Assembly (NCBI GenBank): GCA_965261975.1 | Contig: CBDHEC010000002.1 | Location: 1 to 17,439, forward strand | Origin: Alphaproteobacteria bacterium | GTDB lineage: Bacteria; Pseudomonadota; Alphaproteobacteria; UBA6615 | Length of the DNA stretch: 17,439 bases | Direction: 5' to 3' | Part shown: positions 872 to 14,308 of the stretch, one piece after another | Layout: every line of letters starts with the position of its first letter | Numbering within the stretch: position 1 is the stretch's first letter | Notes under the pieces: model-generated | Database searches by the model: none | What the model saw: the letters and a program-made list of their open reading frames with translations, nothing else | Told to the model about the DNA's origin: nothing | Program-made: the position numbers and the translations under genes

Positions 872-1363
872 TCAACAGCCCTTGTAGGCCTTGCGGGCGC
901 ACTCGCGGGCCATTTCCTGCGCTCGTTCGAGCTGGACCTTGGAGAGTTTTCCCACAACCCGGTCTCTGCTTCTGATCGCCGCCCGGTCGAATGACGATGT
1001 GGCGATATTCCACCACATATAGGCATACATGTTGTCGAGCGGGACACCGTTGCCGCTCGAATACATGTCGTCCAGTTTGACCTGGGCGGCGGTGTTCCCC
1101 TGTTCGGCGGCCAGCCTGAACCACCACGCCGCCTCCTTGTAGTTCTGTCGAACACCGTTTCCCTGGCGATACATCTCGCCCAAACTCAGTTGGGCTTCGG
1201 CGACCCCCTGCTCGGCAAGCGGTGTCCACTCGGCCAGGGCGGTTGCGTAGTCCCGCCGTTCGTAGGCGGTTTGACCCTTCTGTAAATCAGCGCTCCAGGA
1301 CAACCCCGTGTTTCCAAGAAACAGGGCCATCGTCAGGCATAAGGTGGCGGTCAGGTTTTTCAT
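872..1363 (-). CDS. Secreted Sel1-like repeat (SLR/TPR) protein, 163 aa
   Basis: ATG at 1363 follows an AAGGGGG Shine-Dalgarno (SD). It starts with a signal-peptide-like segment (MKNLTATLCLTMALFLGNTGLSWS-AD). One canonical Sel1 repeat (AEAQLSLGEMYRQGNGVRQNYKEAAWWFRLAAEQGN) is followed by a degenerate second repeat. The upstream extension in the ORF track (to 1486) looks non-coding. Confidence 0.88.
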   Translation of the reverse strand: MKNLTATLCLTMALFLGNTGLSWSADLQKGQTAYERRDYATALAEWTPLAEQGVAEAQLSLGEMYRQGNGVRQNYKEAAWWFRLAAEQGNTAAQVKLDDMYSSGNGVPLDNMYAYMWWNIATSSFDRAAIRSRDRVVGKLSKVQLERAQEMARECARKAYKGC

Positions 1364-1503
1364 GATAACCCCCTTGCAATGTCCCGATATTCTAGCCCGA
1401 CCACGACAATTTTCACGTATCTCGTGCAGAAAAATTTCGGGCGATGGACATATGGAACTGCAAATCCGGCCAAAATTTGTCCGCATGATGGCCGTTCGGG
1501 CAC

Positions 1504-1527
1504 AAAAAAGCCGCCCGAAGGCAGCTC
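1504..1527 (-). terminator. Rho-independent terminator of tRNA-Glu
   Basis: Minus strand reads G-AGCTGCC-TTCG-GGCGGCT-TTTTT: a stem with a C(UUCG)G tetraloop and a U tract, 15 nt after the tRNA CCA. Confidence 0.85.
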
Positions 1528-1542
1528 ATTCACAACAAAAGT

Positions 1543-1618
1543 TGGTATCCCGTAGGGGAGTCGAACCCCTGTTTCCGGCGTGAGAGGCCAGCGTCCTAGG
1601 CCACTAGACGAACGGGAC
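1543..1618 (-). tRNA. tRNA-Glu (anticodon CTC)
   Basis: 76 nt: GTCCCGTTCGTCTAGTGGCCTAGGACGCTGGCCTCTCACGCCGGAAACAGGGGTTCGACTCCCCTACGGGATACCA. Acceptor stem GTCCCGT/ACGGGAT, anticodon arm CTGGC-CTCTCAC-GCCGG, T-loop GTTCGAC, encoded CCA. Confidence 0.97.
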
Positions 1619-1645
1619 ATCGTGGCATTTCAAAACAGGATCGAC

Positions 1646-1674
1646 GAAATAACCGAAGCGGCCCGTCATTTCAA
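1646..1674 (-). promoter_or_regulatory. Putative sigma70 promoter of tRNA-Glu
   Basis: TTGAAA (1674-1669), 17-nt spacer, TATTTC (1651-1646), 27 nt upstream of the tRNA 5' end. Confidence 0.55.
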
Positions 1675-1706
1675 GCCGATGTTCGCACCGGCGGCCTCGT
1701 GCACGC

Positions 1707-2765
1707 TCAGGCCGCCACGCCGAAATGGCCGCGCACGGCGTCGATGAAACCGTCGACATCGGCGTCCGTGACGCTCCATGGCACGACGAGGCGAATCGTG
1801 CCGTCGCTCCCGACCCGATAAAACCCGAAGCCGTCCGCTTCCAGCTTGTCCAGTGTCGGCAATGGCAGCTTGGCGAAGACGATGTTGGCCTCCGGCGCGC
1901 GCACCAGTTCCGCGCCGTCGATCCTCGATATACCGTCAGCGAGTTTGGCCGCGCCTGCATTGGCCGTGCGCGCGGCCTGCAGCCACGCATCGTCTTGCAG
2001 ATAGCCTTCGAGCTGGGCCGAAACGAAGCGCATTTTCGACACCAGGTGACCGCCACGTTTGCGACGCTCGCCAAATGCGGCCGCAAGGTCCTCGCGGAAA
2101 AAGATCACCGCTTCGGCGGCCATCGCACCGCCCTTCGTGGCGCCGAAGGACAAGACATCCACCCCGCGCCGCCAGGTGGCGTCCGCCGCGCTCACGTCAA
2201 GTGCGGCGAGGGCGTTGGCGAAACGTGCGCCGTCCATGTGCAGCGCCAGGTCGGCTTTCCGCGCGATCTCCGCGATCGCGTCGACATGCGCGGCGCTGTA
2301 GACCGTGCCCGCCTCGCTCTCCTGGGTGATCGTGATCGCCGCCGGCGGCATGTTGTGGACGCCATGAGGCCGCGCGGTCTCGATGGCCGCACGCAGCATC
2401 GCCGGGTCGATCCGGCCGTCGGGACCGTCCACCAGGGTCAGCTTCGCGCCCCCGGTATAGAATTCAGGCGCGCCGCATTCATCCGTGTTGGCGTGGCTCA
2501 CCGGATGGCAGAAGACGGTGCCGAAGGGCGGACACAGCGCCGACAGGGCCAGCGCGTTCGCTGCCGTGCCCGTGGTCACCGGGAAGGCCCAGAGTTCACA
2601 CTCGAAAATATCGCGCAGGCGCGCCGACACACGCTCGGTCCACGGGTCGTTGCCATAGGGCATGGCGCCCGCCGACGCGGCCTCGCTCACCGCCGCGATC
2701 ACTTGCGGCAGCGCGCCGGCCACATTGTCGCTGGCGAAGTTGGCCGGGGCGTTCGCCCTGCTCAT
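1707..2765 (-). CDS. ltaE: Low-specificity L-threonine aldolase (PLP-dependent)
   Basis: Motifs NFASDN, YGNDPWT, TGTAANALAL, DECGAPEF, HMDGARFANA and DVLSFGATKGG (PLP lysine). ATG at 2765 overlaps the upstream TGA (ATGA coupling). Confidence 0.9.
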   Translation of the reverse strand: MSRANAPANFASDNVAGALPQVIAAVSEAASAGAMPYGNDPWTERVSARLRDIFECELWAFPVTTGTAANALALSALCPPFGTVFCHPVSHANTDECGAPEFYTGGAKLTLVDGPDGRIDPAMLRAAIETARPHGVHNMPPAAITITQESEAGTVYSAAHVDAIAEIARKADLALHMDGARFANALAALDVSAADATWRRGVDVLSFGATKGGAMAAEAVIFFREDLAAAFGERRKRGGHLVSKMRFVSAQLEGYLQDDAWLQAARTANAGAAKLADGISRIDGAELVRAPEANIVFAKLPLPTLDKLEADGFGFYRVGSDGTIRLVVPWSVTDADVDGFIDAVRGHFGVAA

Positions 2766-3076
2766 GGCCGAATCTCGGACTGAATCTGGCCGCTCGACAA
2801 TTGAATCACGAACACCCGCCGGCATTCGGGCAGTTCCGCGGGACCGCCGGTTATAACGGTCAGGCGGCCGGCATTGGTGGTCGCCTGCTCGATCACGCAG
2901 GCCGGCGACGGCAGGCCGAGCGATAGCCGGTCCGGTGTCGCTTGGGTATTGTTGCCCCCGGATGCAGCCCCCGGTTCGCCGTCATCATCGAACGCCGTCC
3001 AGATGATGGCGCCAAAAACGACCAGGATGAGGACACCCAGTACGATGACGATCGTGCGTAAAACATGTATGGCCAA
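2762..3076 (-). CDS. Small hypothetical protein with a single N-terminal transmembrane anchor, 104 aa
   Basis: TTG start 5 nt after a GGAGG SD. Hydrophobic helix TIVIVLGVLILVVFGAIIWTAF, a low-complexity linker, then a short beta-rich domain with two Cys. The stop overlaps the ltaE start. Confidence 0.75.
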   Translation of the reverse strand: MAIHVLRTIVIVLGVLILVVFGAIIWTAFDDDGEPGAASGGNNTQATPDRLSLGLPSPACVIEQATTNAGRLTVITGGPAELPECRRVFVIQLSSGQIQSEIRP

Positions 3077-3100
3077 TGGACCCTCCGAACTTCGAAGCGC

Positions 3101-3128
3101 AGTCTAGGGCCGTGACGCAAAAAGACAA
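3101..3128 (-). promoter_or_regulatory. Putative sigma70 promoter for the membrane protein-ltaE unit
   Basis: TTGTCT (3128-3123), 16-nt spacer, TAGACT (3106-3101), just upstream of the GGAGG SD. Confidence 0.45.
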
Positions 3129-3165
3129 CGATACGCAAGGCGACAATCCGGCGGACGATCCCTTC

Positions 3166-4158
3166 ATGGACGAGACCATGCCGGGTGAAGCAACGCTGCA
3201 GGTGGCCGTCGCAGCCGATCAGGCGGGCACCCGGCTCGACCGGTTGCTGGCGGCCACGCTCGAAGACCTGTCGCGTTCGCGCCTGAAGGCGCTGATCGAG
3301 GACGGCCAGGTGCGCCGCGACGGTGAGATCATCCGATCACCCTCGGCCAAGGTAAATTCTGGGGACGCGTTCGAGGTCACGATCCCTGCACCGGTCGATG
3401 CCATCCCGGTCGGGCAGGACATCCCCCTCGACATCCTGTTCGAGGATGACGATCTGATCGTGCTCGACAAGCCCGCTGGCATGGTCGTCCACCCCGCGCC
3501 GGGCAATCCCGACGGCACCCTCGTCAACGCGCTAATCGCCCATTGCGGCGATAGCCTTGCCGGAATCGGTGGCGTGCGACGCCCCGGAATCGTCCACCGG
3601 CTGGACAAGGACACGAGCGGCGTGATGGTTGCCGCCAAGACCGCCGTGGCGCATGCCAATCTCGTCGAGCAATTTTCCGCACGGAGCGTGGACCGGGCCT
3701 ATCATGCATTCGTTTGGGGCCTGGCGACGCCGGCGACAGGCGAGATCGAGGGCGCCATCGGCCGTCACCCCAAGAACCGAAAGAAGATGGCCGTGCGCGA
3801 GACCGGCGGGAAGCACGCATTGACCCGCTACAAGACCCTCGAGGTCTATGGCGACGGATTGGCATCGCTGGTCGAATGCCGTCTGGCGACCGGCCGCACC
3901 CACCAGATCCGGGTGCATTTGAGCCACCGCGGAAACCCGCTTGTGGGCGATCCTCAGTATGGCCGCGCAACGGGGCGGCGCGATGCGGTTTCAGCCCTGG
4001 ATCCGGAGATGAAACGCCAGATTGTTGGATTTTCGCGCCAGGCGCTACACGCGCGCGTCCTGGGATTCGTCCATCCCGTTTCGGGTCAACGTATTGATTT
4101 TAAAACAGAATTGCCCGACGACATGGCACATCTTAAGAAAATATTAGAATCTCTCTAA
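3166..4158 (+). CDS. rluD: RluA-family 23S rRNA pseudouridine synthase (RluD type, with S4 domain)
   Basis: S4 domain (RLDRLLA...SRSRLKALIEDGQV), DKPAGMVVHP, catalytic GIVHRLDKDTSG, TGRTHQIRVH, GDPQYG and RQALHA. The start is uncertain: 3076, 3112 (GTG), 3166 or 3178. Confidence 0.93.
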   Translation: MDETMPGEATLQVAVAADQAGTRLDRLLAATLEDLSRSRLKALIEDGQVRRDGEIIRSPSAKVNSGDAFEVTIPAPVDAIPVGQDIPLDILFEDDDLIVLDKPAGMVVHPAPGNPDGTLVNALIAHCGDSLAGIGGVRRPGIVHRLDKDTSGVMVAAKTAVAHANLVEQFSARSVDRAYHAFVWGLATPATGEIEGAIGRHPKNRKKMAVRETGGKHALTRYKTLEVYGDGLASLVECRLATGRTHQIRVHLSHRGNPLVGDPQYGRATGRRDAVSALDPEMKRQIVGFSRQALHARVLGFVHPVSGQRIDFKTELPDDMAHLKKILESL

Positions 4159-4189: not shown

Positions 4190-4254
4190 TCCTGTGACAG
4201 GCTGACGCCTCGTTCAGCACATTCCATTCGCACGTGCGGATGTTGGGAGATTCA

Positions 4255-5151
4255 ATGATGGCATCACCGGCGCTTCCCTCGCTTACCCCCGACGGCAACC
4301 TGTCGCGCTACCTGCAGGAAATTCGAAAATTTCCCATGCTGGAGCCCGAGCAGGAGTTCATGGCCGCCAAACGCTGGGTCGAGCATGAAGACGTGGACGC
4401 CGCCCACTTGATGGTGACGAGCCACCTTCGACTGGTCGCCAAAATCGCGATGGGTTATCGCGGCTACGGCCTACCCGTCGCCGAACTGATCTCCGAAGGC
4501 AATGTCGGGCTCATGCAGGCCGTCAAGAAATTCGACCCAGATCGGGGCTTCCGCCTGTCGACCTATGCGATGTGGTGGATCCGCGCCGCCATCCAGGAAT
4601 ACATCCTGCACTCCTGGAGCCTCGTCAAAATGGGCACCACGGCGGCACAGAAGAAGCTCTTCTTCAACCTTCGACGCATGAAGGGGCAGCTAAAGGCATT
4701 CGACGAAGGCGATCTTCCGCCAGAGCAGGTCGCGCATATCGCCAAGGAACTGAGTGTCGCCGAGAAGGACGTGGTGATGATGAACCGCCGCCTGGCCGGC
4801 CCCGACGGCTCCCTCAATGCGCCGCTGCGCAAGGATGGGGATGGCGACGGCGAATGGATGGACTGGCTGGTCGATGAATCCGAGTCTCAGGAATCCGAGC
4901 TCGTTGAGCAGGACGAGCTGGAAAACCGGCGCAAGCTCCTGAACCAGGCCATGGAAGGCCTCAATGAGCGTGAGCGCCACATTCTGAACGAGCGCCGTTT
5001 GCGTGAGGACCCCGTTACCCTTGAGGACTTGTCCCAGCAATACGATATCAGCCGCGAACGGGTGCGGCAGATCGAGGTTCGGGCGTTCGAGAAGTTGCAG
5101 AAAGCGATGAAGAACCTGACCATCGAGCAACAGGTCGCCGCGCCGCAATAG
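4255..5151 (+). CDS. rpoH: RNA polymerase sigma-32 factor RpoH
   Basis: RYLQEIRKFPML, region 2 (SHLRLVAKIA...ELISEGNVGLMQAVKKFDPDRGFRLSTYAMWWIRA), RpoH box QKKLFFNLR and region 4 (TLEDLSQQYDISRERVRQIE). GGGAG SD lies before the ATG at 4255 or 4258. Confidence 0.97.
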   Translation: MMASPALPSLTPDGNLSRYLQEIRKFPMLEPEQEFMAAKRWVEHEDVDAAHLMVTSHLRLVAKIAMGYRGYGLPVAELISEGNVGLMQAVKKFDPDRGFRLSTYAMWWIRAAIQEYILHSWSLVKMGTTAAQKKLFFNLRRMKGQLKAFDEGDLPPEQVAHIAKELSVAEKDVVMMNRRLAGPDGSLNAPLRKDGDGDGEWMDWLVDESESQESELVEQDELENRRKLLNQAMEGLNERERHILNERRLREDPVTLEDLSQQYDISRERVRQIEVRAFEKLQKAMKNLTIEQQVAAPQ

Positions 5152-5172
5152 CGCGGGACAAGACTGTCGGGA

Positions 5173-5679
5173 TCAGCTCTTGGATGGCGCCTTGATTCCG
5201 GTGCCCCATTCTTCGACAAGGCGCTGCTGTTCGCGCCGCATCATCTTGATTTTGGTTTCGTTCGTGACCTCGATGTAGACGGCCGCGACCTTGGGCATTC
5301 CCAGGACCAGCAGCCAGCCGATGCCCGCCGTGCCGAACATCACGGCGATGACGAATACGTCGGACAACATCGCCGTCGCGCGCGCCATCATCGGCCCCGC
5401 GACCAGAAGTTCGACAATGAAGGGGGCCACGCCGGCAATATTCGCCGCAGCGACGGCAAGTGTCGCATTTCGGCCCGGCTCGCGATCGATGATGAAGGCG
5501 ACCATCGCCGGGACACAGCCAACGATAAACACCAGCAGGGCCGGCGCGGCGAACAGCATCAGGCCCATGAAGATCACGCCGACGAGCATGAACAGATAGG
5601 CGCCACCGCCTTTCTTTGCAGGCGGTGCCTCCGCCGATTTCGCCGGCGCTGCTTTCGCTTTGTCCTTCGACGAGGCCAT
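5173..5679 (-). CDS. Hypothetical integral membrane protein (about 4 TM), 168 aa
   Basis: ATG at 5679, 4 nt after the TAG of the upstream gene. Basic Ala/Lys/Pro N-tail, four hydrophobic segments and a charged helical C-tail (KIKMMRREQQRLVEEWG). Confidence 0.8.
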   Translation of the reverse strand: MASSKDKAKAAPAKSAEAPPAKKGGGAYLFMLVGVIFMGLMLFAAPALLVFIVGCVPAMVAFIIDREPGRNATLAVAAANIAGVAPFIVELLVAGPMMARATAMLSDVFVIAVMFGTAGIGWLLVLGMPKVAAVYIEVTNETKIKMMRREQQRLVEEWGTGIKAPSKS

Positions 5680-5683
5680 CTCG

Positions 5684-7738
5684 CTATCCAATCCTCGAGA
5701 AAACCAGCGCCGCAATCACGAGCACGCTGATGATGCTGGAAACGTTTGCTGCAATTTGCCGGCCGAGCAGGTTTGCCTGACGTTGAAGACGTTTCTCGTC
5801 GGTCTGCATTCTCGTGATCTCGGCGGCCAGGGCCGCATATCGACGTTCTGCGGCTGCCGCACCGCGTTCATCCCAGCGACGCCTCTTGGCATTGTCGACG
5901 ATCTTGATCAGGTCGCCCAGCCTGCCCTTGGCTGCCGCCTTCTTGGAATCCTTCAGTATCTCCTCACGCAACGTCACATTGCGGAAACTGCTGATCGCAG
6001 GTTGTAATTCTTCGAGGAAAATTTTGAAGAGTTCCTTGGTTACCACCGCACTGTTCTTGCTCTGCACGAAGGCCAACAGCCGCAATTGTGCCGAGTTCTT
6101 TTCCATGTCGCTGGAGGCGCGCGCGTAATCATGCAATTCCCGGTCAATCCGCCCGGTGATGCGCGCGGCCAGAAACGCGGCGATGTGACGGTCAAACAAT
6201 AGTTCGCCGGTCTCGGCATGGCGCTCGATGCATTCCAGCAATTCCCGCGGCTGCAACGGCACACGTCCCTTGAGCGACGGGCTCAGGCACGGCAATGCAG
6301 GGTTCAGTTCATAAACGCATCGCTCGATAGAGAAACCCGGCGCCGTGTCGGCCAGAAATATCGCTGCCTTGTCGACAATCTCCGATGCCGCCAGCATCCA
6401 GGTCTTGGGGCGTGTCTGGCACTCGTGCCAGAAGCTCATCATCTTGCCGAGAACAAGATCGGTATAGTCCGCCGACAGACCCTTGTCCCAGACGGCGATG
6501 ATCGAAGCCGGGCCAATCGCATCCGGCATCACGGCCATCTTGCGAAAGCGTATGGGACCGACCGGATCGAGCTTCGTGATGATCCGCGACAAACGAATAT
6601 CGTCCGTCATTTTTCGCGGCCCCGACGAACCGATCAGTCCACATTCGGAAACATCTTTCGCAAGATCACGATTCTTCAGGTTTCGTTCGATCCACAGCTC
6701 GATGGTGTCGTCGCTGGCCAGCTTAAGGGCCGCATCCCAATCCGACGCCAGGTGGTGCGCCAGCTCACGTGCGGTGTAGGCCATGCGCCCATTGACCTCC
6801 ATCGGCCTGTCCGCGCGTTCTTCGGATACGGGCTGCGACGGATTCACGCGACCACTGTTCACCCAGTTCGACAGGTCGGGGATGGTCCATCTTTCATGCT
6901 CTTCGTCACGGAGCAACGAGCGCACGACGGGCGCGAGATCGGCGTGAAGCTTGTGCTTGCCCAACAGCGCATTGTAGCTGCCATGCGCGACCCGGCGCTG
7001 GAGAAGCTCCTCCTCGTCCATCCCCGCAACGGGATTGAACCCCAGCCCGAGAACCATGATCGTCACACCGAGCGCAAACAGCTCGTCCGACAGGTCACCG
7101 ATCCCGCGACAGATCGGCGGACACATGGCACGCTCGATCGTCTCGAACATCGATGGCTGCTCATAGCCCGGTGGCGCGCTGTAAATCTGGCCCGACACGA
7201 CGGAATCGTCGCTCACCTGTCGATAGAGATTGGTTGGCCGAATATTGCGATGTGTCAGGCGGTCTTCCTGCATCCGCCGGAGCAAATCCAGGATCGGCAT
7301 CAGGAGATCGCGCTTGATCTCGCGAACGGTCCAATACTGGGTTTTCGAATCCATGGTTTGCAGCAACGGCGGCCCGGGGGGCTGCGGCAGGATAATGACA
7401 ATTTCCTCGCGGCCGTCACCGACCCAGTCGACCTGGCCCCAGCGGATGGGCTTCAGGAGCGCTTCGTGCGGAATATCCTTCGCCGCGAGAATGGCCGTGA
7501 GACGCGCCGGGACTTTATGGTCGAGCACCAAGGCATAGAGTTCGCGGTCCGGGTCTTCGGCATCATGGGTCAGATAAGCGCGCGCCGTCGGCGTGGACAG
7601 ATGGGGCAACACGACATCGGGCTGAATCTTGTACCGGCTGGCAAAGACCACCTCTTTCTTGGAATCGGGAGACGGCGGCCGGGTACTTGTCCCTTCCGGC
7701 GCGTGCGGTTCTTCCGCTCTTACTGTCGCGTCACTCAT
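5684..7738 (-). CDS. Ser/Thr protein-kinase-fold protein (predicted pseudokinase) with C-terminal coiled coil and membrane anchor, 684 aa
   Basis: Hanks subdomains are recognisable in order: RYKI (I), HEALL..I.WG (IV), IILPQPPGPPL (V), LTHRNIRPTNLY (VIb), ETIE (VIII), SDELFALGV (IX), LLRDEEHERW (XI). The C-terminal hydrophobic helix is IISVLVIAALVF. Confidence 0.85.
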   Translation of the reverse strand: MSDATVRAEEPHAPEGTSTRPPSPDSKKEVVFASRYKIQPDVVLPHLSTPTARAYLTHDAEDPDRELYALVLDHKVPARLTAILAAKDIPHEALLKPIRWGQVDWVGDGREEIVIILPQPPGPPLLQTMDSKTQYWTVREIKRDLLMPILDLLRRMQEDRLTHRNIRPTNLYRQVSDDSVVSGQIYSAPPGYEQPSMFETIERAMCPPICRGIGDLSDELFALGVTIMVLGLGFNPVAGMDEEELLQRRVAHGSYNALLGKHKLHADLAPVVRSLLRDEEHERWTIPDLSNWVNSGRVNPSQPVSEERADRPMEVNGRMAYTARELAHHLASDWDAALKLASDDTIELWIERNLKNRDLAKDVSECGLIGSSGPRKMTDDIRLSRIITKLDPVGPIRFRKMAVMPDAIGPASIIAVWDKGLSADYTDLVLGKMMSFWHECQTRPKTWMLAASEIVDKAAIFLADTAPGFSIERCVYELNPALPCLSPSLKGRVPLQPRELLECIERHAETGELLFDRHIAAFLAARITGRIDRELHDYARASSDMEKNSAQLRLLAFVQSKNSAVVTKELFKIFLEELQPAISSFRNVTLREEILKDSKKAAAKGRLGDLIKIVDNAKRRRWDERGAAAAERRYAALAAEITRMQTDEKRLQRQANLLGRQIAANVSSIISVLVIAALVFSRIG

Positions 7739-7791
7739 CCTATTCGCCCATACGTTGCGCGATCCGCAGCGCAGATCGCCGCGAATTCAGG

Positions 7792-7824
7792 AGTTTAGGC
7801 AGGATGAAGGTAAAGGAAGGTTAA
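7792..7824 (-). promoter_or_regulatory. CtrA-box-like site with a downstream -10 element
   Basis: Minus strand TTAA-CCTTCCT-TTAC (7824-7810) matches TTAA-N7-TTAA with one mismatch. TAAACT (7797-7792) follows 12 nt later. Confidence 0.6.
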
Positions 7825-7830
7825 CGCCGA

Positions 7831-9123
7831 TCAATCGGCAAACGGGTCCCGCACCAGGATCGTGTCGAGCCGTTCCGGGCTGGTCGAGAGCAGCGCAACG
7901 GGGGCATCGATCAGTTCCTCGATACGGCGCACATATTTGATCGCCGTGGCAGGCAAATCGGCCCAGCTGCGCGCGCCCTGGGTGCTGGTCTGCCAGCCTT
8001 CCATCGTTTCATAGACCGGCGTGACGCTGGCCTGTTCACGAATCCCGGCCGGGAACCTCGGCACCTCGACACCATCGACGGTGTAGCCCACGCAAACCTT
8101 GAGTTCTTCGATGCCATCGAGGACATCAAGCTTCGTCAGGGCAATACCGCTGATTCCACCGACGCGAACCGCCTGACGAACCATCACCGCATCGAACCAG
8201 CCACAACGGCGGCGTCGGCCGGTCACGGTGCCGAACTCATGCCCGCGTTCGCCCAAGAGCTCACCGACTTGGTTCTCCTGCTCCGTCGGGAACGGGCCGC
8301 TGCCCACGCGCGTGGTATAGGCCTTGGTGATGCCAAGCACATATCCGATCGTGTTTGGCGCCACACCCGAACCCGCCGCGGCCTGCCCGGCCACCGTGTT
8401 GGACGAGGTCACAAATGGATAGGTGCCGTGGTCGACATCGAGCATCGCACCCTGGGCACCCTCGAAGAGAATTCGTTTTCCGGCCTTGCGCGCATCATCG
8501 AGGAAATCCCAGACCGGCGCGGCATAGGGCAACAATCGCTCGGTGATCTCGTCAATGCGTGCCATCAACTCGGCCTTGTCGACCTCTTCCGCGCCCAGTC
8601 CACGCAGCAGGGCATTGTGGTGGAACAGCAAATGGTCGACCCGCGTGTCGAGGGTCTCCCGGTCCGCCAGATCGCAAACCCGAATGGCGCGGCGGCCCAC
8701 CTTGTCTTCATAGGCCGGGCCGATACCGCGGCCGGTCGTGCCGATCTTGTCTGCACCGCGGGCCACCTCGATTGCCTGATCGAGATAGGGATGCAACGGC
8801 AGGATCAGGCTCGCATTGTCGGCAACCTTGAGGGTCTCGGGGGTCACCTCGACACCCATCTTGACGATCTCGTCGATTTCCCCGAGCAATGCCCAGGGGT
8901 CGACGACGACGCCGTTTCCGATGACCCCGATCTTGCCCGGGCGCACAACGCCGGAGGGTAACAGGCTGAGTTTGTAGACCTGACCGTCAATAACCAGCGT
9001 ATGCCCGGCGTTGTGCCCGCCCTGAAAACGAACCACGACATCGGCACGCTCCGACAGCCAGTCGACGATCTTGCCTTTGCCTTCATCGCCCCACTGGGAG
9101 CCAACCACCGCTACATTCGCCAT
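7831..9123 (-). CDS. purA: Adenylosuccinate synthetase
   Basis: [73 protein letters not shown] and LTKLDVLD. Confidence 0.99.
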
Positions 9124-9135
9124 AGATTCAATCCG

Positions 9136-10320
9136 CTAAGTATTGCTGCCGTCGGCTTTCGCCGGCGCGCCATCCACCAGGAGATGGCTACATCCCAATC
9201 GTCTCGCCTCGGCCCCCGCATCATCTTCCAACGTCATTCCTGCGACGGTAATCCATCCCGCCTCGCGGTACGTCACACCCGTCTGAAATGGCGTGCCATA
9301 GGGCAGGTAAAGCCGGTCACCGACGGCGGTCGCGGGCAATGCGCGAAGGATCGAGTCCATATAGAGCGACGCTCCCGTCGCGGCCTCACCGGCACCGGTG
9401 ATATAGCGGCCGCCACGCCCCAGCTCACCCCGCACGCCCTCGGCGAATAATGTGAAGCTCACGCCGGTATGATACTCGAACCCGCGATACTCGACAGGAT
9501 CGAGGGTCAGCGGCAGGTCCGGCATCGAGGCGTGAAGACCGGCGACCACGGCCGCCAGGCGTTCGACTTCGGCCTGCGCACCCGCCGGCAGCGATAATTC
9601 CTGTAACTCGCCGATGACTTCGTCGGCCGGGCCGACGGTTTCAATCAGGGCACACAAGGCCTTCGCCGCATCCGAAAACGCAATCCCGTTGCCCCGCAGG
9701 ATTTCACCGGTCGCGTCTTCGTCCTTGCGATCGAGCGCGGCGCGAAGATCGTTGGTCGTCACCTCGTCGAGGTCGATCTGTTCGAGAATATTCGCGACCA
9801 GCGCCGGCGAGTTGAGATCAACCGTCGGTCGCGGCACACCCGCCGCCACAAGCGCCGCCGCCGCCAGCGATATCACCTCAACGTCGGCGCTTACATCCTC
9901 GGCCCCGATCAACTCGAGCCCGACCTGGGCAAATTGCCGCTCGGGGCGCAGCTGGTTACCACGCACGCGCAATATCTGCCCGGCATATGACAGGCGCAAC
10001 GGCCGCGGCGCGTCGTGCAGTCTGGCTTCGGCGATACGCGCGACCTGCAGCGTGATATCCGCCCGCACTGCCATCATGCGCTGGCTGACGGGATCCATCA
10101 CCCGGAACATCTGCCCGGCGAGGCTGCCGCCGCCGTTTGTGCCATTCCCCACGAGCGTCGATTCGAACTCGACCAGGGGTGGTTTGACCTGCTCGTAGCC
10201 GCAGGCGCGGAACCCGTCCATGATCCCGGAAATGGTCGCAGCTTCCTGCGCCGCACGCGGCGGCAACAGGTCATGGAGACCCGCCGGCAGCAATGCTTTG
10301 TTTTCACCTGAATCAGTCAT
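9136..10320 (-). CDS. hisZ: ATP phosphoribosyltransferase regulatory subunit HisZ
   Basis: HisRS-like paralog: LLPAGLHDLLP, RADITLQVARIA, PLRLSYAGQILR, RQFAQVGLELIG, YRGFEYHTG and GRGGRY. It has no full HisRS anticodon-binding domain and sits next to purA. Confidence 0.92.
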   Translation of the reverse strand: MTDSGENKALLPAGLHDLLPPRAAQEAATISGIMDGFRACGYEQVKPPLVEFESTLVGNGTNGGGSLAGQMFRVMDPVSQRMMAVRADITLQVARIAEARLHDAPRPLRLSYAGQILRVRGNQLRPERQFAQVGLELIGAEDVSADVEVISLAAAALVAAGVPRPTVDLNSPALVANILEQIDLDEVTTNDLRAALDRKDEDATGEILRGNGIAFSDAAKALCALIETVGPADEVIGELQELSLPAGAQAEVERLAAVVAGLHASMPDLPLTLDPVEYRGFEYHTGVSFTLFAEGVRGELGRGGRYITGAGEAATGASLYMDSILRALPATAVGDRLYLPYGTPFQTGVTYREAGWITVAGMTLEDDAGAEARRLGCSHLLVDGAPAKADGSNT

Positions 10321-10392: not shown

Positions 10393-11439
10393 TCATTTGC
10401 CGGGAGTCGGCCTTGCCGCCACGATTGTACCATCGGCCAGGCCGTAAACCGCATAGACGGTTCCACTGCGATCCAGCCTGGCGGGCCGTACGGCGGTAAC
10501 GATCTTCCGGTCATGGGCGACCGCGTCGAAATCGCGAAAACGCCCCTCGGCGAAGGTCACGAAGCGCAGCGCATTGCGCCGCGCATCGGGAACGGCAATA
10601 TCGGCCACGCCGTCACCGGTCCCGGCCGCCTGCGCCTGCTCCCGGCTGCCGATGGCGTGGTTGGAGAACCCTCGCGCGGCGTGGTCCTGGTGCAGCTTGC
10701 GGTCCCGAAACTCATACAGGCGGAGCGTGCCGCCGATGTGCGGGGTCTCGACGAAAGCGACTTCGGTTCGGCCGTCACCGTCGAAATCCGCGGCGCCCAC
10801 CGGATTGAGCCAGCGGTTCGCGCGACCGATCGCCGGCACTTCGGACAGGAAGACCACCCCGGATTCATCGAGGCCGAACACGGCGAGTGCCGCACCGGCA
10901 TCCAGATAGGACTGAACCACGATCGCCTCATCGCGCCCGTCACCGTCAAGATCGATCAGCCGAACCCGGCGATCCTCAAAAACGGAACCCGCGTCCAGCT
11001 TGTAGCGTGCAATCCGGCCATCCGGGCGTTGCAACGCAAGACCACCCGCCTCGATCCCATCCCCCAAAACGCCATGGCGATAGCGGTCTGTCGGATCGGT
11101 CAGCCACGCGCGGGCGATCCCGCCGGTACCATAGGTGATTTCCCCGTCCGGCAGCATGTCGTCGGGCCGGGGCGCCAGCGAGGTGGTTGTCGGTATCGAA
11201 ATGTCCGGGATGGCAAGCTTGCCGCGCTCAACGATCAGCCTGCGAACTCGGCCATCCGCCGAGCGCACACCGACCTGCGACGGCGCATGAGAAATGCCGC
11301 CCTCGACACCCGGACCGATGCGGACAATTTCCATGCTGCCGGCCGTCTCCGGCAACCGGAGAACGTCTGCTGCGGATGCCGCACCGGCGACAGCGACCGT
11401 CATAGCCACCACGAGGCATGTGGCAGCCCGAAACTGCAT
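10393..11439 (-). CDS. Secreted FG-GAP/VCBS-repeat protein, 348 aa
   Basis: Signal peptide (MQFRAATCLVVAMTVAVAGAASA-AD) and DxDxDG motifs DLDGDGRDE and DFDGDGRTE, plus a degenerate TGDGVAD. The start overlaps the serA stop (TGATG). Confidence 0.8.
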   Translation of the reverse strand: MQFRAATCLVVAMTVAVAGAASAADVLRLPETAGSMEIVRIGPGVEGGISHAPSQVGVRSADGRVRRLIVERGKLAIPDISIPTTTSLAPRPDDMLPDGEITYGTGGIARAWLTDPTDRYRHGVLGDGIEAGGLALQRPDGRIARYKLDAGSVFEDRRVRLIDLDGDGRDEAIVVQSYLDAGAALAVFGLDESGVVFLSEVPAIGRANRWLNPVGAADFDGDGRTEVAFVETPHIGGTLRLYEFRDRKLHQDHAARGFSNHAIGSREQAQAAGTGDGVADIAVPDARRNALRFVTFAEGRFRDFDAVAHDRKIVTAVRPARLDRSGTVYAVYGLADGTIVAARPTPGK

Positions 11440-13016
11440 CAGAAGTTAAGCGCCTTCGCCTGCACCACGTTCGGCAGCGCGGCGACCGCGGCCAGCACAT
11501 CGGCCGGGACCTCGTGATCCACTTCGACAAGTGCGATCGCATCATCGCCCGCCGCGGTGCGGCCAAGCTGGAACGTGGCAATATTCAAGCCGGCGTCGCC
11601 CAACACCGTGCCGAGATGGCCGATCAGGCCCGGCTTGTCCTCGTTGTTGACGTAGAGCATGTGGCTGCCGAGCTCGGCTTCCATGGGCACCCCCTTCACG
11701 TCGACCACCCGCGGCCGGTCGCCGCCGAACAAGGTCCCGGCGATGGAGCGGGTATGGTTCTCGGTAACGACGGTCAGGCGCACCAGCGTCTGATAGTCAC
11801 TTTCACGCGCCGTGCGCACCTCCGACACGTCGATCCCGCGCTCCTGGGCCATGACGGGCGCGTTGACCATGTTCACACTATCGAGCACCGGCGAGAGCAA
11901 TCCCTTCAGCGCCGCGGCACTGAGCGGCTTGGTATTCAATTCTGCCGCATGTCCCTCATACTCGATGGTCACACTTTTGAGACTGGATTCGACGAGTTGT
12001 CCCGCGAAGCTGCCGAGCAGCTCCGCGAGCTTCATATAGGGCATCAGGCGCGGCGCATCCTCGGCCGAGACCGACGGCATGTTCAACGCGTTCACGACCG
12101 CGCCGGTCAGCAGATAATCGGCCATCTGCTCGGCAACCTGGATCGCGACATTGACCTGCGCCTCGGTCGTGCTTGCACCCAGATGCGGGGTGCAGACGAG
12201 ATTCTCGGTCCCGAACAGCGCATTGTCCTTGGCCGGCTCTTCCTCGAAAACATCGAGGGCGGCGCCGGCGACATGGCCCGATTCGAGCGCGGCCTTGAGA
12301 TCCGCCTCGACGACGAGGCCGCCACGCGCGCAATTGACGATGCGCACGCCCGGCTTGGTCTTTGCCAGCGCCTCGGCATCCAAAATACCCCGGGTCTGGT
12401 CCGTCAACGGGGTGTGCAGGGTGATGAAGTCCGCACGCCGGAGGAGCGTGTCCAACTCCGCCTTCTCGACCCCCAGCTCGCGTGCGCGCTCGTCGCTGAG
12501 GAACGGATCAAAGGCAACGACCTTCATCTTCAGACCCAGCGCGCGCTCCGCCACGATCGAGCCGATGTTCCCGCATCCGATCAAGCCCAGGGTCTTGGCG
12601 GTCAGCTCCACCCCCATAAAGCGTGACTTTTCCCATTTGCCTTCCTGGGTGGATATGTTGGCCTCGGGAATCTGCCGCGCCAGCGCCATCATCATCGCGA
12701 TGGCATGTTCGGCAGTCGTGATCGCATTGCCGAACGGCGTGTTCATGACGACGATGCCTCGCGCAGTCGCGGCACCCCGGTCGACATTGTCGACGCCGAT
12801 ACCCGCACGGCCGATGACCTTCATATTGGTCGCGGCCTCGAGGACCGTTGCCGTCGCCTTTGTCGCCGACCGGATTGCCAGGCCGTCATAATCACCAATA
12901 ACGGCAATCAGCTCTTCTTCGGATAGGCCGGTCTTCACATCGACCTCGATACCGCGCTCAACGAAAATTTCTTTCGCGCGTTCACTCATTTTGTCGGAAA
13001 TCAGTACTTTTGGCAT
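11439..13016 (-). CDS. serA: D-3-phosphoglycerate dehydrogenase (long type I, with ASB and ACT domains)
   Basis: IGRAGIGVDNVD, NTPFGNAITTAEH, Rossmann GLIGCGNIG, NCARGG, TPHLGAST and ACT domain NEDKPGLIG. GGAAGGA SD precedes the ATG at 13016. Confidence 0.98.
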   Translation of the reverse strand: MPKVLISDKMSERAKEIFVERGIEVDVKTGLSEEELIAVIGDYDGLAIRSATKATATVLEAATNMKVIGRAGIGVDNVDRGAATARGIVVMNTPFGNAITTAEHAIAMMMALARQIPEANISTQEGKWEKSRFMGVELTAKTLGLIGCGNIGSIVAERALGLKMKVVAFDPFLSDERARELGVEKAELDTLLRRADFITLHTPLTDQTRGILDAEALAKTKPGVRIVNCARGGLVVEADLKAALESGHVAGAALDVFEEEPAKDNALFGTENLVCTPHLGASTTEAQVNVAIQVAEQMADYLLTGAVVNALNMPSVSAEDAPRLMPYMKLAELLGSFAGQLVESSLKSVTIEYEGHAAELNTKPLSAAALKGLLSPVLDSVNMVNAPVMAQERGIDVSEVRTARESDYQTLVRLTVVTENHTRSIAGTLFGGDRPRVVDVKGVPMEAELGSHMLYVNNEDKPGLIGHLGTVLGDAGLNIATFQLGRTAAGDDAIALVEVDHEVPADVLAAVAALPNVVQAKALNF

Positions 13017-13078
13017 GGGGTCATCCTTCCGCAGCAATGCGGGTATGGGCGTATTTTTGGAAGAGTGGTCGTCGCCGG

Positions 13079-14254
13079 TCAGGCGGCGGCGCGTTCGGCC
13101 TTCACCGTCTCGAAGGCCCAGTCGAGCCAGGGCATCAGGGCCGCGAGGTCGGATTTCTCGACCGTCGCACCGGCCCAGATCCGCAGGCCCGGCGGGGCGT
13201 CACGATAGGCACCGACATCGAAGGCAACACCCTCGCTGTCGAGCAGCGTTGCGACTGCCTTCGCGGTGGCGGCCTGCTCGTCGTCCGGAAGTGCGGCGAA
13301 CCAGGCATCCACGACCTTGAGACACACGCTCGTCGTCGAGCGGAGCGCCGGGTCGTCAGCGAGAAAGGCCGCCCAGTTCGACTGGGCCACCCAGGCATCG
13401 ATCACGCCGAAATTCTCGTTCGAGCGACCAATCAATGCATCGATGCCACCGATCTCCTGCGACCAGTCGAGAGCGTCGAGATGATCCTCGACGCAAATCA
13501 TCGACGGCGTGTTGATCGTGCTGCCCTTGAAGATATCCTCGTTGAGCTTCCCGCCCTTGGTGAGGCGGAAAATCTTCGGCATCGGCCATGGTGGCGCATA
13601 GCTTTCAAGGCGCTCGACCGCGCGCGGGCTCAGCACCAGCATCCCGTGCTGGGCTTCACCACCCAGAACCTTCTGCCAGGACCAGGTGACGATATCGAGC
13701 TTGTCCCAGGGCAGATCCATGGCGAAAGCCGCTGATGTCGCGTCGCACAGGGTCAGGCCCGCACGGTCGTCGGGAATCCAGTCGCCGTCCGGCACACGAA
13801 CACCCGATGTCGTGCCGTTCCAGGTGAAGATCACATCGCGCGCGAAATCGACCGCCTCGAGATCCGGCAACGCACCATAGTCGGCGTCGAGGATGCGAAC
13901 ATCGTCGAGCTTCAGCTGCTTGACGACGTCCGTCGCCCAGCCCTGGCCGAAGCTTTCCCAGGCCAGGATGTCGATCGGACGGGCGCCGAGGACCGACCAC
14001 ATGGCCATCTCGAAGGCGCCGGTGTCCGAGGCGGGCACGATGCCAATCCGGTAATCCTCGGGGATTCCCAGGATCGAGCGGCTGTCCTCGATAACACGCT
14101 GGAGTTTGGCCTTGGGACCCTTTGCGCGATGCGATCGGCCGATGCTGGCATCGGTCAGGGCATCCAGCGACCATCCGGGTCGCTTGGCGCAGGGGCCAGA
14201 GGAAAAGAGGGGTGAGGCCGGACGGGTGCCCGGCTTGGTCATTGCTTGCGTCAT
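13079..14254 (-). CDS. serC: Phosphoserine aminotransferase (alphaproteobacterial/Methanosarcina type)
   Basis: [57 protein letters not shown] (PLP lysine) and [21 protein letters not shown] precedes the ATG at 14254. Confidence 0.97.
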
Positions 14255-14261
14255 GTACGCG

Positions 14262-14308
14262 CTCCTTGCAGAACGCCGCACCTCGTTGGGGAGGTGTGGC
14301 CCGCGGCA
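14262..14308 (-). ncRNA. serC leader RNA motif (cis-regulatory element)
   Basis: Minus strand GCCGCGGGCCA-CACCTC-CCCAAC-GAGGTG-CGGCGTTCTGCAAGGAG: a hairpin with a CCCAAC loop, an upstream GGG and the SD just downstream. It matches my recollection of the alphaproteobacterial serC motif and sits in the expected position. Confidence 0.8.

Follow-up and report, generated by a model that had tools for sequence, protein, structure and literature searches.

A conserved gene pair encoding a tail-anchored pseudokinase and a predicted four-segment membrane protein in Rhodospirillales-type alphaproteobacteria

The locus described here lies in a stretch of DNA of 17,439 nucleotides (nt), hereafter the window (positions 1 to 17,439 of contig CBDHEC010000002.1, assembly GCA_965261975.1, Alphaproteobacteria lineage UBA6615), which appears to be a housekeeping chromosomal stretch of alphaproteobacterial character. 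Two of its genes are the subject of this work. PK encodes a degenerate protein kinase that ends in a membrane anchor, and TM4 encodes a small membrane protein with four hydrophobic segments (Table 1). The results showed that PK belongs to a family of pseudokinases and that TM4 accompanies it in most of the relatives. An initial annotation made from the sequence alone had described two co-oriented genes, 4 bp apart, between purA and a convergent rpoH, and this arrangement was confirmed by the coordinates and by the family matches of the flanking genes.

The PK stop codon (TAG, 5686-5684) is followed by 4 nt and then by the TM4 start codon, an ATG at 5679. A longer open reading frame (ORF) in the TM4 frame begins with TTG at 5715 and overlaps PK; the ATG was favoured as the TM4 start because an alignment of 72 TM4 sequences shows the methionine it encodes, M1, to be at least 90% conserved. 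The relatives found at E ≤ 0.001, 95 for PK and 56 for TM4, indicate that both genes are real. As the initial annotation had stated, these relatives are annotated only generically, under the names "hypothetical protein" or "serine/threonine protein kinase". The GC content of the pair (0.59-0.61) is slightly lower than that of the purA-hisZ stretch (0.62-0.64) and falls within the range of the window (0.58-0.68). A spacer of 92 nt separates purA from PK, while the convergent stop codons of TM4 and rpoH lie 21 nt apart (5152-5172), and the terminator scan listed no terminator-like site in either of these spacers.

Table 1. Features of the PK-TM4 locus and its flanking genes, with positions given in the window.
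Feature	Position	Strand	Extent	Basis or remarks
PK gene (P0001), tail-anchored pseudokinase	5684-7738	minus	684 aa	ORF calling, translation
TM4 gene (P0002), membrane protein	5173-5679	minus	168 aa	ORF calling, translation
Bilobal protein-kinase fold, degenerate (HRN for HRD, no β3 Lys, no DFG Asp)	6839-7651	minus	PK residues ~30-300	phmmer, Foldseek, residue census
All-helical domain (two small β hairpins), unknown fold	5891-6826	minus	PK residues 305-616	AlphaFold2, pLDDT 93.3 modelled alone
Stalk helix, heptad-like hydrophobic stripe, candidate coiled coil	5759-5890	minus	PK residues 617-660	Model and family hydropathy
C-terminal membrane anchor	5699-5758	minus	PK residues 661-680	Conserved G659, A663, A664 ahead; 4 residues after
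N-tail of TM4, KDKAKAAPAKSAEAPPAKK, Lys/Ala/Pro-rich, basic	5602-5679	minus	TM4 residues 1-26
End of the C-terminal helix of TM4 (EEWG), RREQQRLVEEWG, predicted cytoplasmic	5203-5238	minus	TM4 residues 148-159	72-sequence alignment
CtrA-type box GTTAACC-N5-TTAC	7810-7825	minus		5 nt after purA stop, 71 nt before PK start
CTA-containing element CCTAAACT, partly conserved, candidate -10 region	7792-7799	minus		~10 nt downstream of the box
purA	7831-9123	minus		Upstream of PK, same strand; Pfam Adenylsucc_synt 7.5e-178; NCBIfam purA above cut-off
rpoH	4234-5151	plus		Convergent, downstream of the pair; TIGR02392, 375.6 bits vs cut-off 323.1
rluD	3076-4158	plus		Window neighbour
hisZ-like gene	9136-10320	minus		Window neighbour

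The kinase character of PK was observed in both sequence and structure comparisons. In a phmmer search against the PDB sequences, residues 109-308 aligned to kinase C-lobes, the best match being MAPKAPK3 (7.3e-05), and HRNIRPTN of PK was placed opposite HRDVKPEN. The AlphaFold2 model of PK, built with 78 relatives, had a predicted local distance difference test (pLDDT) value of 90.4 and a predicted template modelling (pTM) score of 0.84. When the N-terminal ~270 residues of the protein were compared with known structures using Foldseek, the kinase domains of WNK and PknB were recovered (E 2.5e-09 to 1e-07, template modelling score on the target 0.7-0.75), and at least 500 kinase matches to PK in the PDB were obtained at E ≤ 0.001. 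No Pfam family matched PK at E ≤ 0.01, so that PF00069 was not reached at its gathering score, and the kinase matches in NCBIfam were all far below threshold; a precomputed PF00069 flag was carried by 30 of the 95 PK relatives, as counted by hand from the table. The UbiB/ABC1 group of atypical kinases was considered as an assignment and rejected, given that PK gave no ABC1-type match in Pfam or NCBIfam.

In a scan using one genome per species, PK relatives were identified at 251 loci, and 80 of these loci, from 80 different contigs, were analysed. The residue census was performed on 75 full-length family ORFs, namely those of the window and of 74 loci. Neither the β3 lysine nor the DFG aspartate was found in any of them (0/75 each), and the position of the HRD aspartate was occupied by Asp in one sequence only, with Ala (37), Asn (16) and Gly (13) as the common residues. 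The first two positions of the motif were better retained, with His in 66/75 and Arg in 49/75; PK itself reads H-R-N, and its β3 strand is LYALVLD. Among 148 further cluster representatives that were examined, 114 had a recognisable loop and one of these carried the Asp. This demonstrates that the PK family is a pseudokinase family, in which the Hanks-type fold is present and the catalytic Lys, HRD Asp and DFG Asp have been lost family-wide. The kinase-fold protein lacking catalytic motifs that was proposed from the sequence of the window was thus borne out by sequence comparison, predicted structure and the residue census alike. Other positions of the domain are strongly retained: N170 and G183 were kept in 75/75, R167 in 69/75 and an acidic residue after G183 in 68/75, the window's own clade having Gln at this position, 184 (6/75). 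A GRGxG loop (R211, G212, G214), which follows the APE-like Glu, is conserved as well, as is an activation-segment-like stretch (S187, P189, G191, Q194, P195).

The region beyond the kinase-like fold was overlooked in the initial annotation, and this C-domain of ~310 residues may be the working part of PK. It accounts for the majority of the invariant polar positions in PK, and its invariant or near-invariant positions are G468, E472, R473, Y476, N479, C484, S486, D516, R517, H518, F522, R526 and Q559. A Foldseek search with the model of the domain returned no match at E ≤ 0.001 (best E 0.85 in the PDB and 0.30 in BFVD), and its profile matched only designed armadillo-repeat proteins among the PDB sequences, with no stretch passing alone. 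The commonest Pfam family at E ≤ 0.1 across the 75 members was PSD13_N, found in 3/75 and treated as noise, and the matches in the ESM Atlas were all below 0.9.

In the AlphaFold2 model, one helix covers PK residues 617-683, which includes both the stalk and the anchor. The hydropathy of the stalk (617-660), taken across the family, has a periodicity that peaks at 105 degrees, near that of a heptad repeat. A coiled coil followed by a transmembrane anchor had been proposed; the long helix and the hydrophobic anchor were recovered, whereas for the coiled coil the heptad-like periodicity is the supporting evidence, and it is therefore kept here as a candidate. A profile of PK residues 305-684 retrieved 1873 cluster representatives at E ≤ 0.001, and 1134 were still retrieved at E ≤ 1e-30, the latter number making this a large family, and one that is uniform in architecture. 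Among the matches listed, 130 of the 148 new representatives were at least 600 aa in length and 18 were shorter, possibly fragments. An apolar C-terminal 19-mer was present in 144/148 of the further representatives, and in the rows checked by eye among the 150 matches listed, the end of the C-domain lay at most ~15 residues from the C terminus of the match.

TM4 has four hydrophobic segments, located at about residues 27-46, 47-64, 72-95 and 108-128. Its conserved residues are P57, A61, D65, N80, G83, P86, G121 and P129; a conserved DR follows segment 2, N80, G83 and P86 are in segment 3, and G121 is in segment 4. The N-tail contains 6 basic and 2 acidic residues out of 26. At the opposite end, W158 and G159 of the EEWG helix are invariant in the 72 aligned sequences and L154 is at least 90% conserved; the TM4 homologs of Elioraea likewise carry an EEWG-type C-terminal motif, ALEQRRATLRETWG. 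These features agree with the protein of four transmembrane segments and a charged terminal helix that was first described from the window. Based on the positive-inside rule, both ends of TM4 are predicted to be cytoplasmic. The N-tails of the Elioraea homologs were observed to have a similar composition and a different sequence, and the tail of TM4 resembles basic low-complexity tails.

No model of Pfam, NCBIfam or PADLOC matched TM4. Across the 72 alignment members, the commonest Pfam family at E ≤ 0.1 was EpsG, in 4/72 and treated as noise, and the TM4 profile gave no match below E 0.19 among the PDB sequences. In the ESM Atlas, the nearest clusters to TM4 were unnamed or auto-named "putative acyl-CoA synthetase", without a Pfam family.

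Following the description of the two proteins, their linkage can be considered. TM4 was detected after PK by tblastn in 71/80 loci and by an iterated hidden Markov model in 73/80, the latter adding two Elioraea loci. Three of the seven misses are contig ends (L047, L052 and L059) and were removed from the assessable set; TM4 is thus directly downstream of PK, on the same strand, in 73/77 assessable loci. The flanking genes are less constant, with purA upstream in 54/75 assessable loci and rpoH downstream in 45/69. The block hisZ-purA-PK-TM4-rpoH-rluD is syntenic in many loci, and the pair is retained in 8/10 loci lacking both purA and rpoH as neighbours. Linkage of the homologs in other genomes, which had been put forward as a means of checking the pair, was therefore found, and these comparisons support PK and TM4 as a conserved, uncharacterised two-gene membrane module. 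By their labels, the PK loci come from the Rhodospirillales genera Azospirillum, Nitrospirillum, Niveispirillum, Skermanella, Magnetospirillum, Thalassospira, Terasakiella, Oceanibaculum and Tistlia, and further carriers are Virgifigura, Algihabitans, SAR116 and Elioraea (Acetobacterales). Magnetospirillum and Azospirillum are genera having tractable model species; the Magnetospirillum relatives seen here are metagenome-assembled genomes (MAGs), and others are in genomes labelled Azospirillum.

The loci in which PK has no TM4 within the flank (L018, L022, L025 and L075) form a PK subclade with the loop HNA or HNG. PK follows tilS in L018, L022 and L075, with a gene for a TolA-binding/TPR (cpoB-like) protein further upstream in L022 and L075, and the upstream flank of L025 is too short to show the tilS context. 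Downstream of PK, gpsA and dnaN are present in L018 and L022, and an acetyl-CoA synthetase gene in L025 and L075. In L008, a MAG, an IS630-family transposase gene (8117-9163, minus strand, 2e-81) separates PK from TM4, and the TM4 ORF begins inside the second hydrophobic segment, such that the partner gene looks truncated. The labels of three loci, Mycobacteriaceae for L019 and Bdellovibrionales for L018 and L047, may be wrong. The purA genes of L019 and L047 are of the alphaproteobacterial type, 68-70% identical to that of the window, and L019 also has an rpoH with 70% identity; both purA and rpoH are missing from the flank of L018, whose PK and tilS context place it in the alphaproteobacterial TM4-less subclade.

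CtrA motifs are described as TTAA-N7-TTAA, the half site TTAA and the ungapped form TTAACCAT, with activating sites positioned near -35, in the excerpted text of PMC6180460. The sequence in front of PK contains TTAA-N7-TTAC at 7810-7824, which is one mismatch away from the full motif. Within the window alone this is not beyond chance: two one-mismatch boxes were found where 0.40 would be expected, and two were also reached in 16 of 200 shuffles. The relatives gave a different picture. A search of 965,939 nt (the window and the 80 loci, both strands) gave 11 occurrences of TTAACC-N5-TTAC, in every case on the gene strand and just upstream of PK, the carriers being the window, L001-L007, L009, L071 and L073, which are related to one another. 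In the alignment of the upstream regions, the flanks of the box are fixed and its 5-nt spacer is variable. GTTAACC was found in 15/74 PK upstream windows (26,640 nt) as compared with 56 occurrences in 1,774,772 nt elsewhere, and TTAACCAT 8 times in 53,280 nt versus 15 times in 1,748,132 nt, being on the gene strand in 7 loci. The CtrA-box-like sequence noticed at the outset is thus present, and its conservation in the relatives is far beyond chance.

The attachment of the box to PK was further illustrated by L003. In this locus, purA and PK are separated by a 187-aa ORF that carries a LOV blue-light sensor domain (1247-1810, plus strand; GRNCRFLQGP; NCBIfam YtvA family 3.4e-28, below cut-off). 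GTTAACC still adjoins PK there, between the LOV gene and PK, and the box therefore belongs to PK rather than to the 3' end of purA. Counterparts of the candidate -10 element CCTAAACT were seen among 8 aligned upstream regions as CCTAAAGT, CCTAGAGT and similar forms, and a sigma-70 promoter scan gave no consensus site in 5000-8000. The box resembles CtrA-activated promoters in its single mismatch to TTAA-N7-TTAA, in the TTAACCAT form of 7 relatives and in a position compatible with -35, as far as these promoters are described in the available part of PMC6180460, and the pair is possibly under CtrA control. Another one-mismatch CtrA-like box, TTAAGAAAATATTAG, which served as an internal control, is located ~90 nt ahead of rpoH at 4133-4147 (plus strand), still within the 3' end of the rluD gene. 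It is common only to the closest relative, L001; some one-mismatch box was present in 11/46 loci, at other positions, and the one upstream of rpoH is probably a chance match.

Whether the two proteins bind each other was addressed by complex prediction, in which PK residues 305-684 and TM4 were each given with their own alignments. The PK-TM4 prediction obtained weak support, with a score of 0.48 against 0.00 for the best of three controls; at least 91% of the contacts were common to the runs, and the pLDDT of the partner was at least 70. The mark used was reached by 116/157 solved complexes and 2/215 mismatched pairs, and at scores ≤ 0.60 by 18/157 solved complexes and both of the passing mismatches, these counts holding only roughly for an input of this kind. 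A mirror-tree analysis of 27 loci, with the housekeeping trend removed, gave a partial correlation of 0.53 for PK and TM4, the highest of 15 gene pairs, with a small lead over the next pairs (0.47 and 0.43). The inner-membrane complex of the initial annotation is therefore weakly supported, by the predicted score and by the top rank of the correlation. When the complex prediction is taken together with the linkage, the chance that PK and TM4 bind appears somewhat better than even.

The neighbourhoods of the pair were also searched for indications of a cellular process. The initial annotation had suggested flagellar or chemotaxis assembly, polarity or the cell cycle as settings. The 47 neighbour proteins scanned, from the 17 loci without purA in the position directly upstream, included a single chemoreceptor and no product of a flagellar gene, which does not favour the tie to flagellar or chemotaxis assembly. 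The evidence for a function in cell polarity or the cell cycle is the CtrA-type box, which could point in this direction. Five Azospirillaceae-type loci (L013, L015, L036, L039 and L061) carry the pair outside the purA-rpoH context, flanked by cyclic di-GMP (c-di-GMP) genes; GGDEF and/or EAL proteins made up 9/18 of their scanned neighbours, compared with 0/29 elsewhere.

Elsewhere in the window, a serC leader RNA (Rfam RF00517, 53.9 bits) is located at 14255-14306, ahead of a 400-aa ORF, in a minus-strand region spanning 13079-14306. The ORF had no Pfam match and was assigned by NCBIfam to phosphoserine transaminase type 2 (TIGR01365, 649 bits), and serA (11439-13037) is the next gene. Between hisZ and serA, a 348-aa ORF (10393-11439, minus strand) showed weak FG-GAP repeat matches (6.9e-08) and no NCBIfam family.

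Taken together, we give about even chances to the reading that PK and TM4 form one operon, and that the inner-membrane module encoded by it is non-catalytic and typical for Rhodospirillales-type alphaproteobacteria. The results show the genes and their linkage, the kinase fold, the absence of the catalytic residues and the conservation of the box; a physical complex, control by CtrA, a scaffold or receptor role and any cellular process are inferred. In such a module, PK would be wholly cytoplasmic and held on the membrane by its C-terminal anchor. The kinase-like domain would be unable to phosphorylate, given that Lys, HRD Asp and DFG Asp are all missing, and it is therefore most likely a binding or conformational-switch domain. 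The C-terminal helical domain, which carries the invariant polar cluster, probably binds a ligand or partner. For the stalk helix and the small residues at the membrane entry, the packing partner is probably a second PK, the TM4 helix bundle, or both. The basic N-tail and the EEWG helix of TM4 would also face the cytoplasm. The CtrA-type box sits roughly at the -35 position and would give the operon its own regulatory site, and an operon having its own conserved box of this type is probably expressed in a CtrA-governed programme.

Several observations weigh against this reading. N170, R167 and the acidic residue after G183 have been kept, and in the C-domain a Cys and an Asp are invariant and a His is near-invariant, which makes a non-canonical activity or ligand chemistry conceivable. 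The complex score lies in a band where a pass is wrong in more cases than it is right, except when the pairing was likely from the start, and neither a PK-TM4 fusion nor any other fused TM4 was found among longer proteins, although this is weak evidence. PK can exist without an adjacent partner, since four loci have PK and no TM4 in the flank. The full box is confined to the window and 10 of the 80 loci, so that most relatives are without it, and its 3' half is TTAC in 11/11 full boxes rather than the TTAA of CtrA-activated promoters; another regulator may bind there. The neighbourhoods name no process, the flanks being housekeeping genes in most loci.

These points bear on the alternatives to different extents. 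One alternative holds that PK is an atypical enzyme or small-molecule sensor, having either a non-canonical nucleotide-dependent kinase domain or a catalytic or ligand-binding C-domain of new fold, and that TM4 is a membrane substrate, channel or regulator. The retained positions in the kinase-like domain, N170 (75/75), R167 (69/75) and the E/D after G183 (68/75), agree with this, as does the conserved GRGxG loop, and the polar cluster of the C-domain appears denser than a pure scaffold usually keeps. The GGDEF/EAL neighbours hint at a second-messenger link; they come from five loci in related genomes, so this context represents one or two events at most. Given that the three canonical catalytic residues are missing throughout the family, that the window's clade has Gln at 184 and that neither fold nor sequence matched any enzyme, we consider an atypical enzyme or sensor unlikely. 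It is also possible that the two proteins do not bind at all. TM4 would then be a small membrane protein of no relation to PK, and inherited gene order would account for their common transcript. The weak complex prediction and the four TM4-less loci are compatible with this, and the linkage is indeed partly inherited order, since the whole hisZ-to-rluD block is syntenic in many loci. The pair is nevertheless kept in most of the loci lacking both purA and rpoH, its linkage exceeds that of either flanking gene, its two genes lie close together (4 nt apart in the window) and its mirror-tree correlation tops the 15 pairs, all of which render an inherited association without binding quite improbable.

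The neighbouring sigma factor suggests a further explanation, namely control or sensing of RpoH by the module; sigma-32 might, for instance, be tethered or released at the membrane. The convergent rpoH of the window and of the 45 loci noted above is the basis for this proposal. As the orientation is convergent, the genes would share no transcript, and as adjacency to purA is even commoner, that to rpoH looks like ancestral gene order. Moreover, rpoH is not nearby in 24 assessable loci, most of which keep the pair, no similarity of the pair to known anti-sigma factors was detected in Pfam or NCBIfam, and the CtrA-like box upstream of rpoH recurs only in L001; a role in RpoH control is accordingly held to be very improbable. 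Lastly, weak matches of PK to the MAD6 family of NCBIfam (5.7e-05, 21.8 bits against a cut-off of 460) and to the PADLOC models PD-T4-6 (0.0014) and mad6 (0.0083) raised the question of a mobile or anti-phage defence kinase system. These matches cover the generic kinase fold only and are far below the cut-offs, the core synteny is conserved, the GC content of the pair overlaps that of the window, the 80 loci are spread over as many contigs, and TM4 matched no defence model of PADLOC. A defence system is thus effectively refuted.

Beyond the non-catalytic module itself, a wider role can be envisaged, although we hold it to be rather doubtful. In this proposal, the pair would be a hitherto unrecognised, order-wide signalling module in which a CtrA-controlled, tail-anchored pseudokinase senses a second messenger (e.g., c-di-GMP) or a membrane or envelope cue through a ligand-binding or catalytic pocket in its new-fold C-domain, formed by the cluster of Cys, Asp, His, Glu and Arg. 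Together with the four-segment partner, it would feed this signal into decisions on motility, the envelope or the cell cycle in the spirilla and their relatives. If a CtrA-controlled membrane scaffold or sensor is indeed encoded here, it would be a new component of alphaproteobacterial developmental control beyond the Caulobacter and Rhizobiales models, and it would provide a clean bacterial two-protein system for pseudokinase biology.

Bacterial Hanks-type pseudokinases are a recognised class that is largely unexplored experimentally, according to the abstract of the 2025 review PMC12599244. Our literature searches surfaced no paper on the PK family or on the PK-TM4 pair, which agrees with the earlier statement that no functional study was known. 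In the libraries searched, no described counterpart was found for any of three components: the ~310-residue domain of unknown fold, the four-segment partner outside Pfam and NCBIfam, and the conserved CtrA-type operator. Among the described families, the GLW pseudokinases are mostly proteobacterial and are characterised by GLW in place of HRD and by a poly-Leu (LLLL/W) β3 strand (bioRxiv 10.1101/2025.01.12.632604; PMC12599244, both in excerpt). PK shares with them a C-terminal anchor (661-680), whereas its loop is H-R-N/A/G in the family and its β3 strand LYALVLD, so that it has neither of the two defining GLW motifs; the excerpted GLW descriptions include neither a C-terminal helical domain nor a four-segment partner. 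GLW and six other atlas pseudokinase families were rejected as assignments, PK being outside their motif definitions in a comparison made by description, as excerpted.

The two membrane systems in the same source offer more functional comparisons, and the PK family belongs to neither of them. The pseudokinase domain of MviN/MurJ (ActPs3) in Mycobacterium tuberculosis is joined to a membrane protein and, in the excerpts of PMC12599244, is presented not as an enzyme but as a docking platform with a regulatory role. As outlined there, the MviN domain is fused to a multi-pass flippase, whereas PK is separate, tail-anchored and encoded beside a small four-segment protein; ActPs3 is also actinobacterial and has an activation-loop deletion as its hallmark, in contrast to the activation-segment-like stretch that PK keeps. 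EssB/YukC, from the type VIIb secretion system of Firmicutes, is a membrane Hanks-type pseudokinase with all three catalytic motifs degraded, acting as a dimerising scaffold that recruits partners (PMC12599244, in excerpt). It differs from PK in having its helix in the middle of the protein followed by an extracellular C-terminal domain, as far as the excerpt describes it, whereas PK is tail-anchored with 4 residues outside. PK gave no match to the EssB/YukC families in Pfam or NCBIfam, its scanned neighbourhoods (purA, rpoH, hisZ, rluD and other housekeeping genes) contained no type VII secretion genes, and it has in addition the cytoplasmic domain of ~310 residues and a dedicated four-segment partner. 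Both proteins nevertheless combine a degraded Hanks-type domain with anchoring by a single membrane helix, and EssB/YukC, as it is described in that text, therefore provides the closest analogy for how PK may work.

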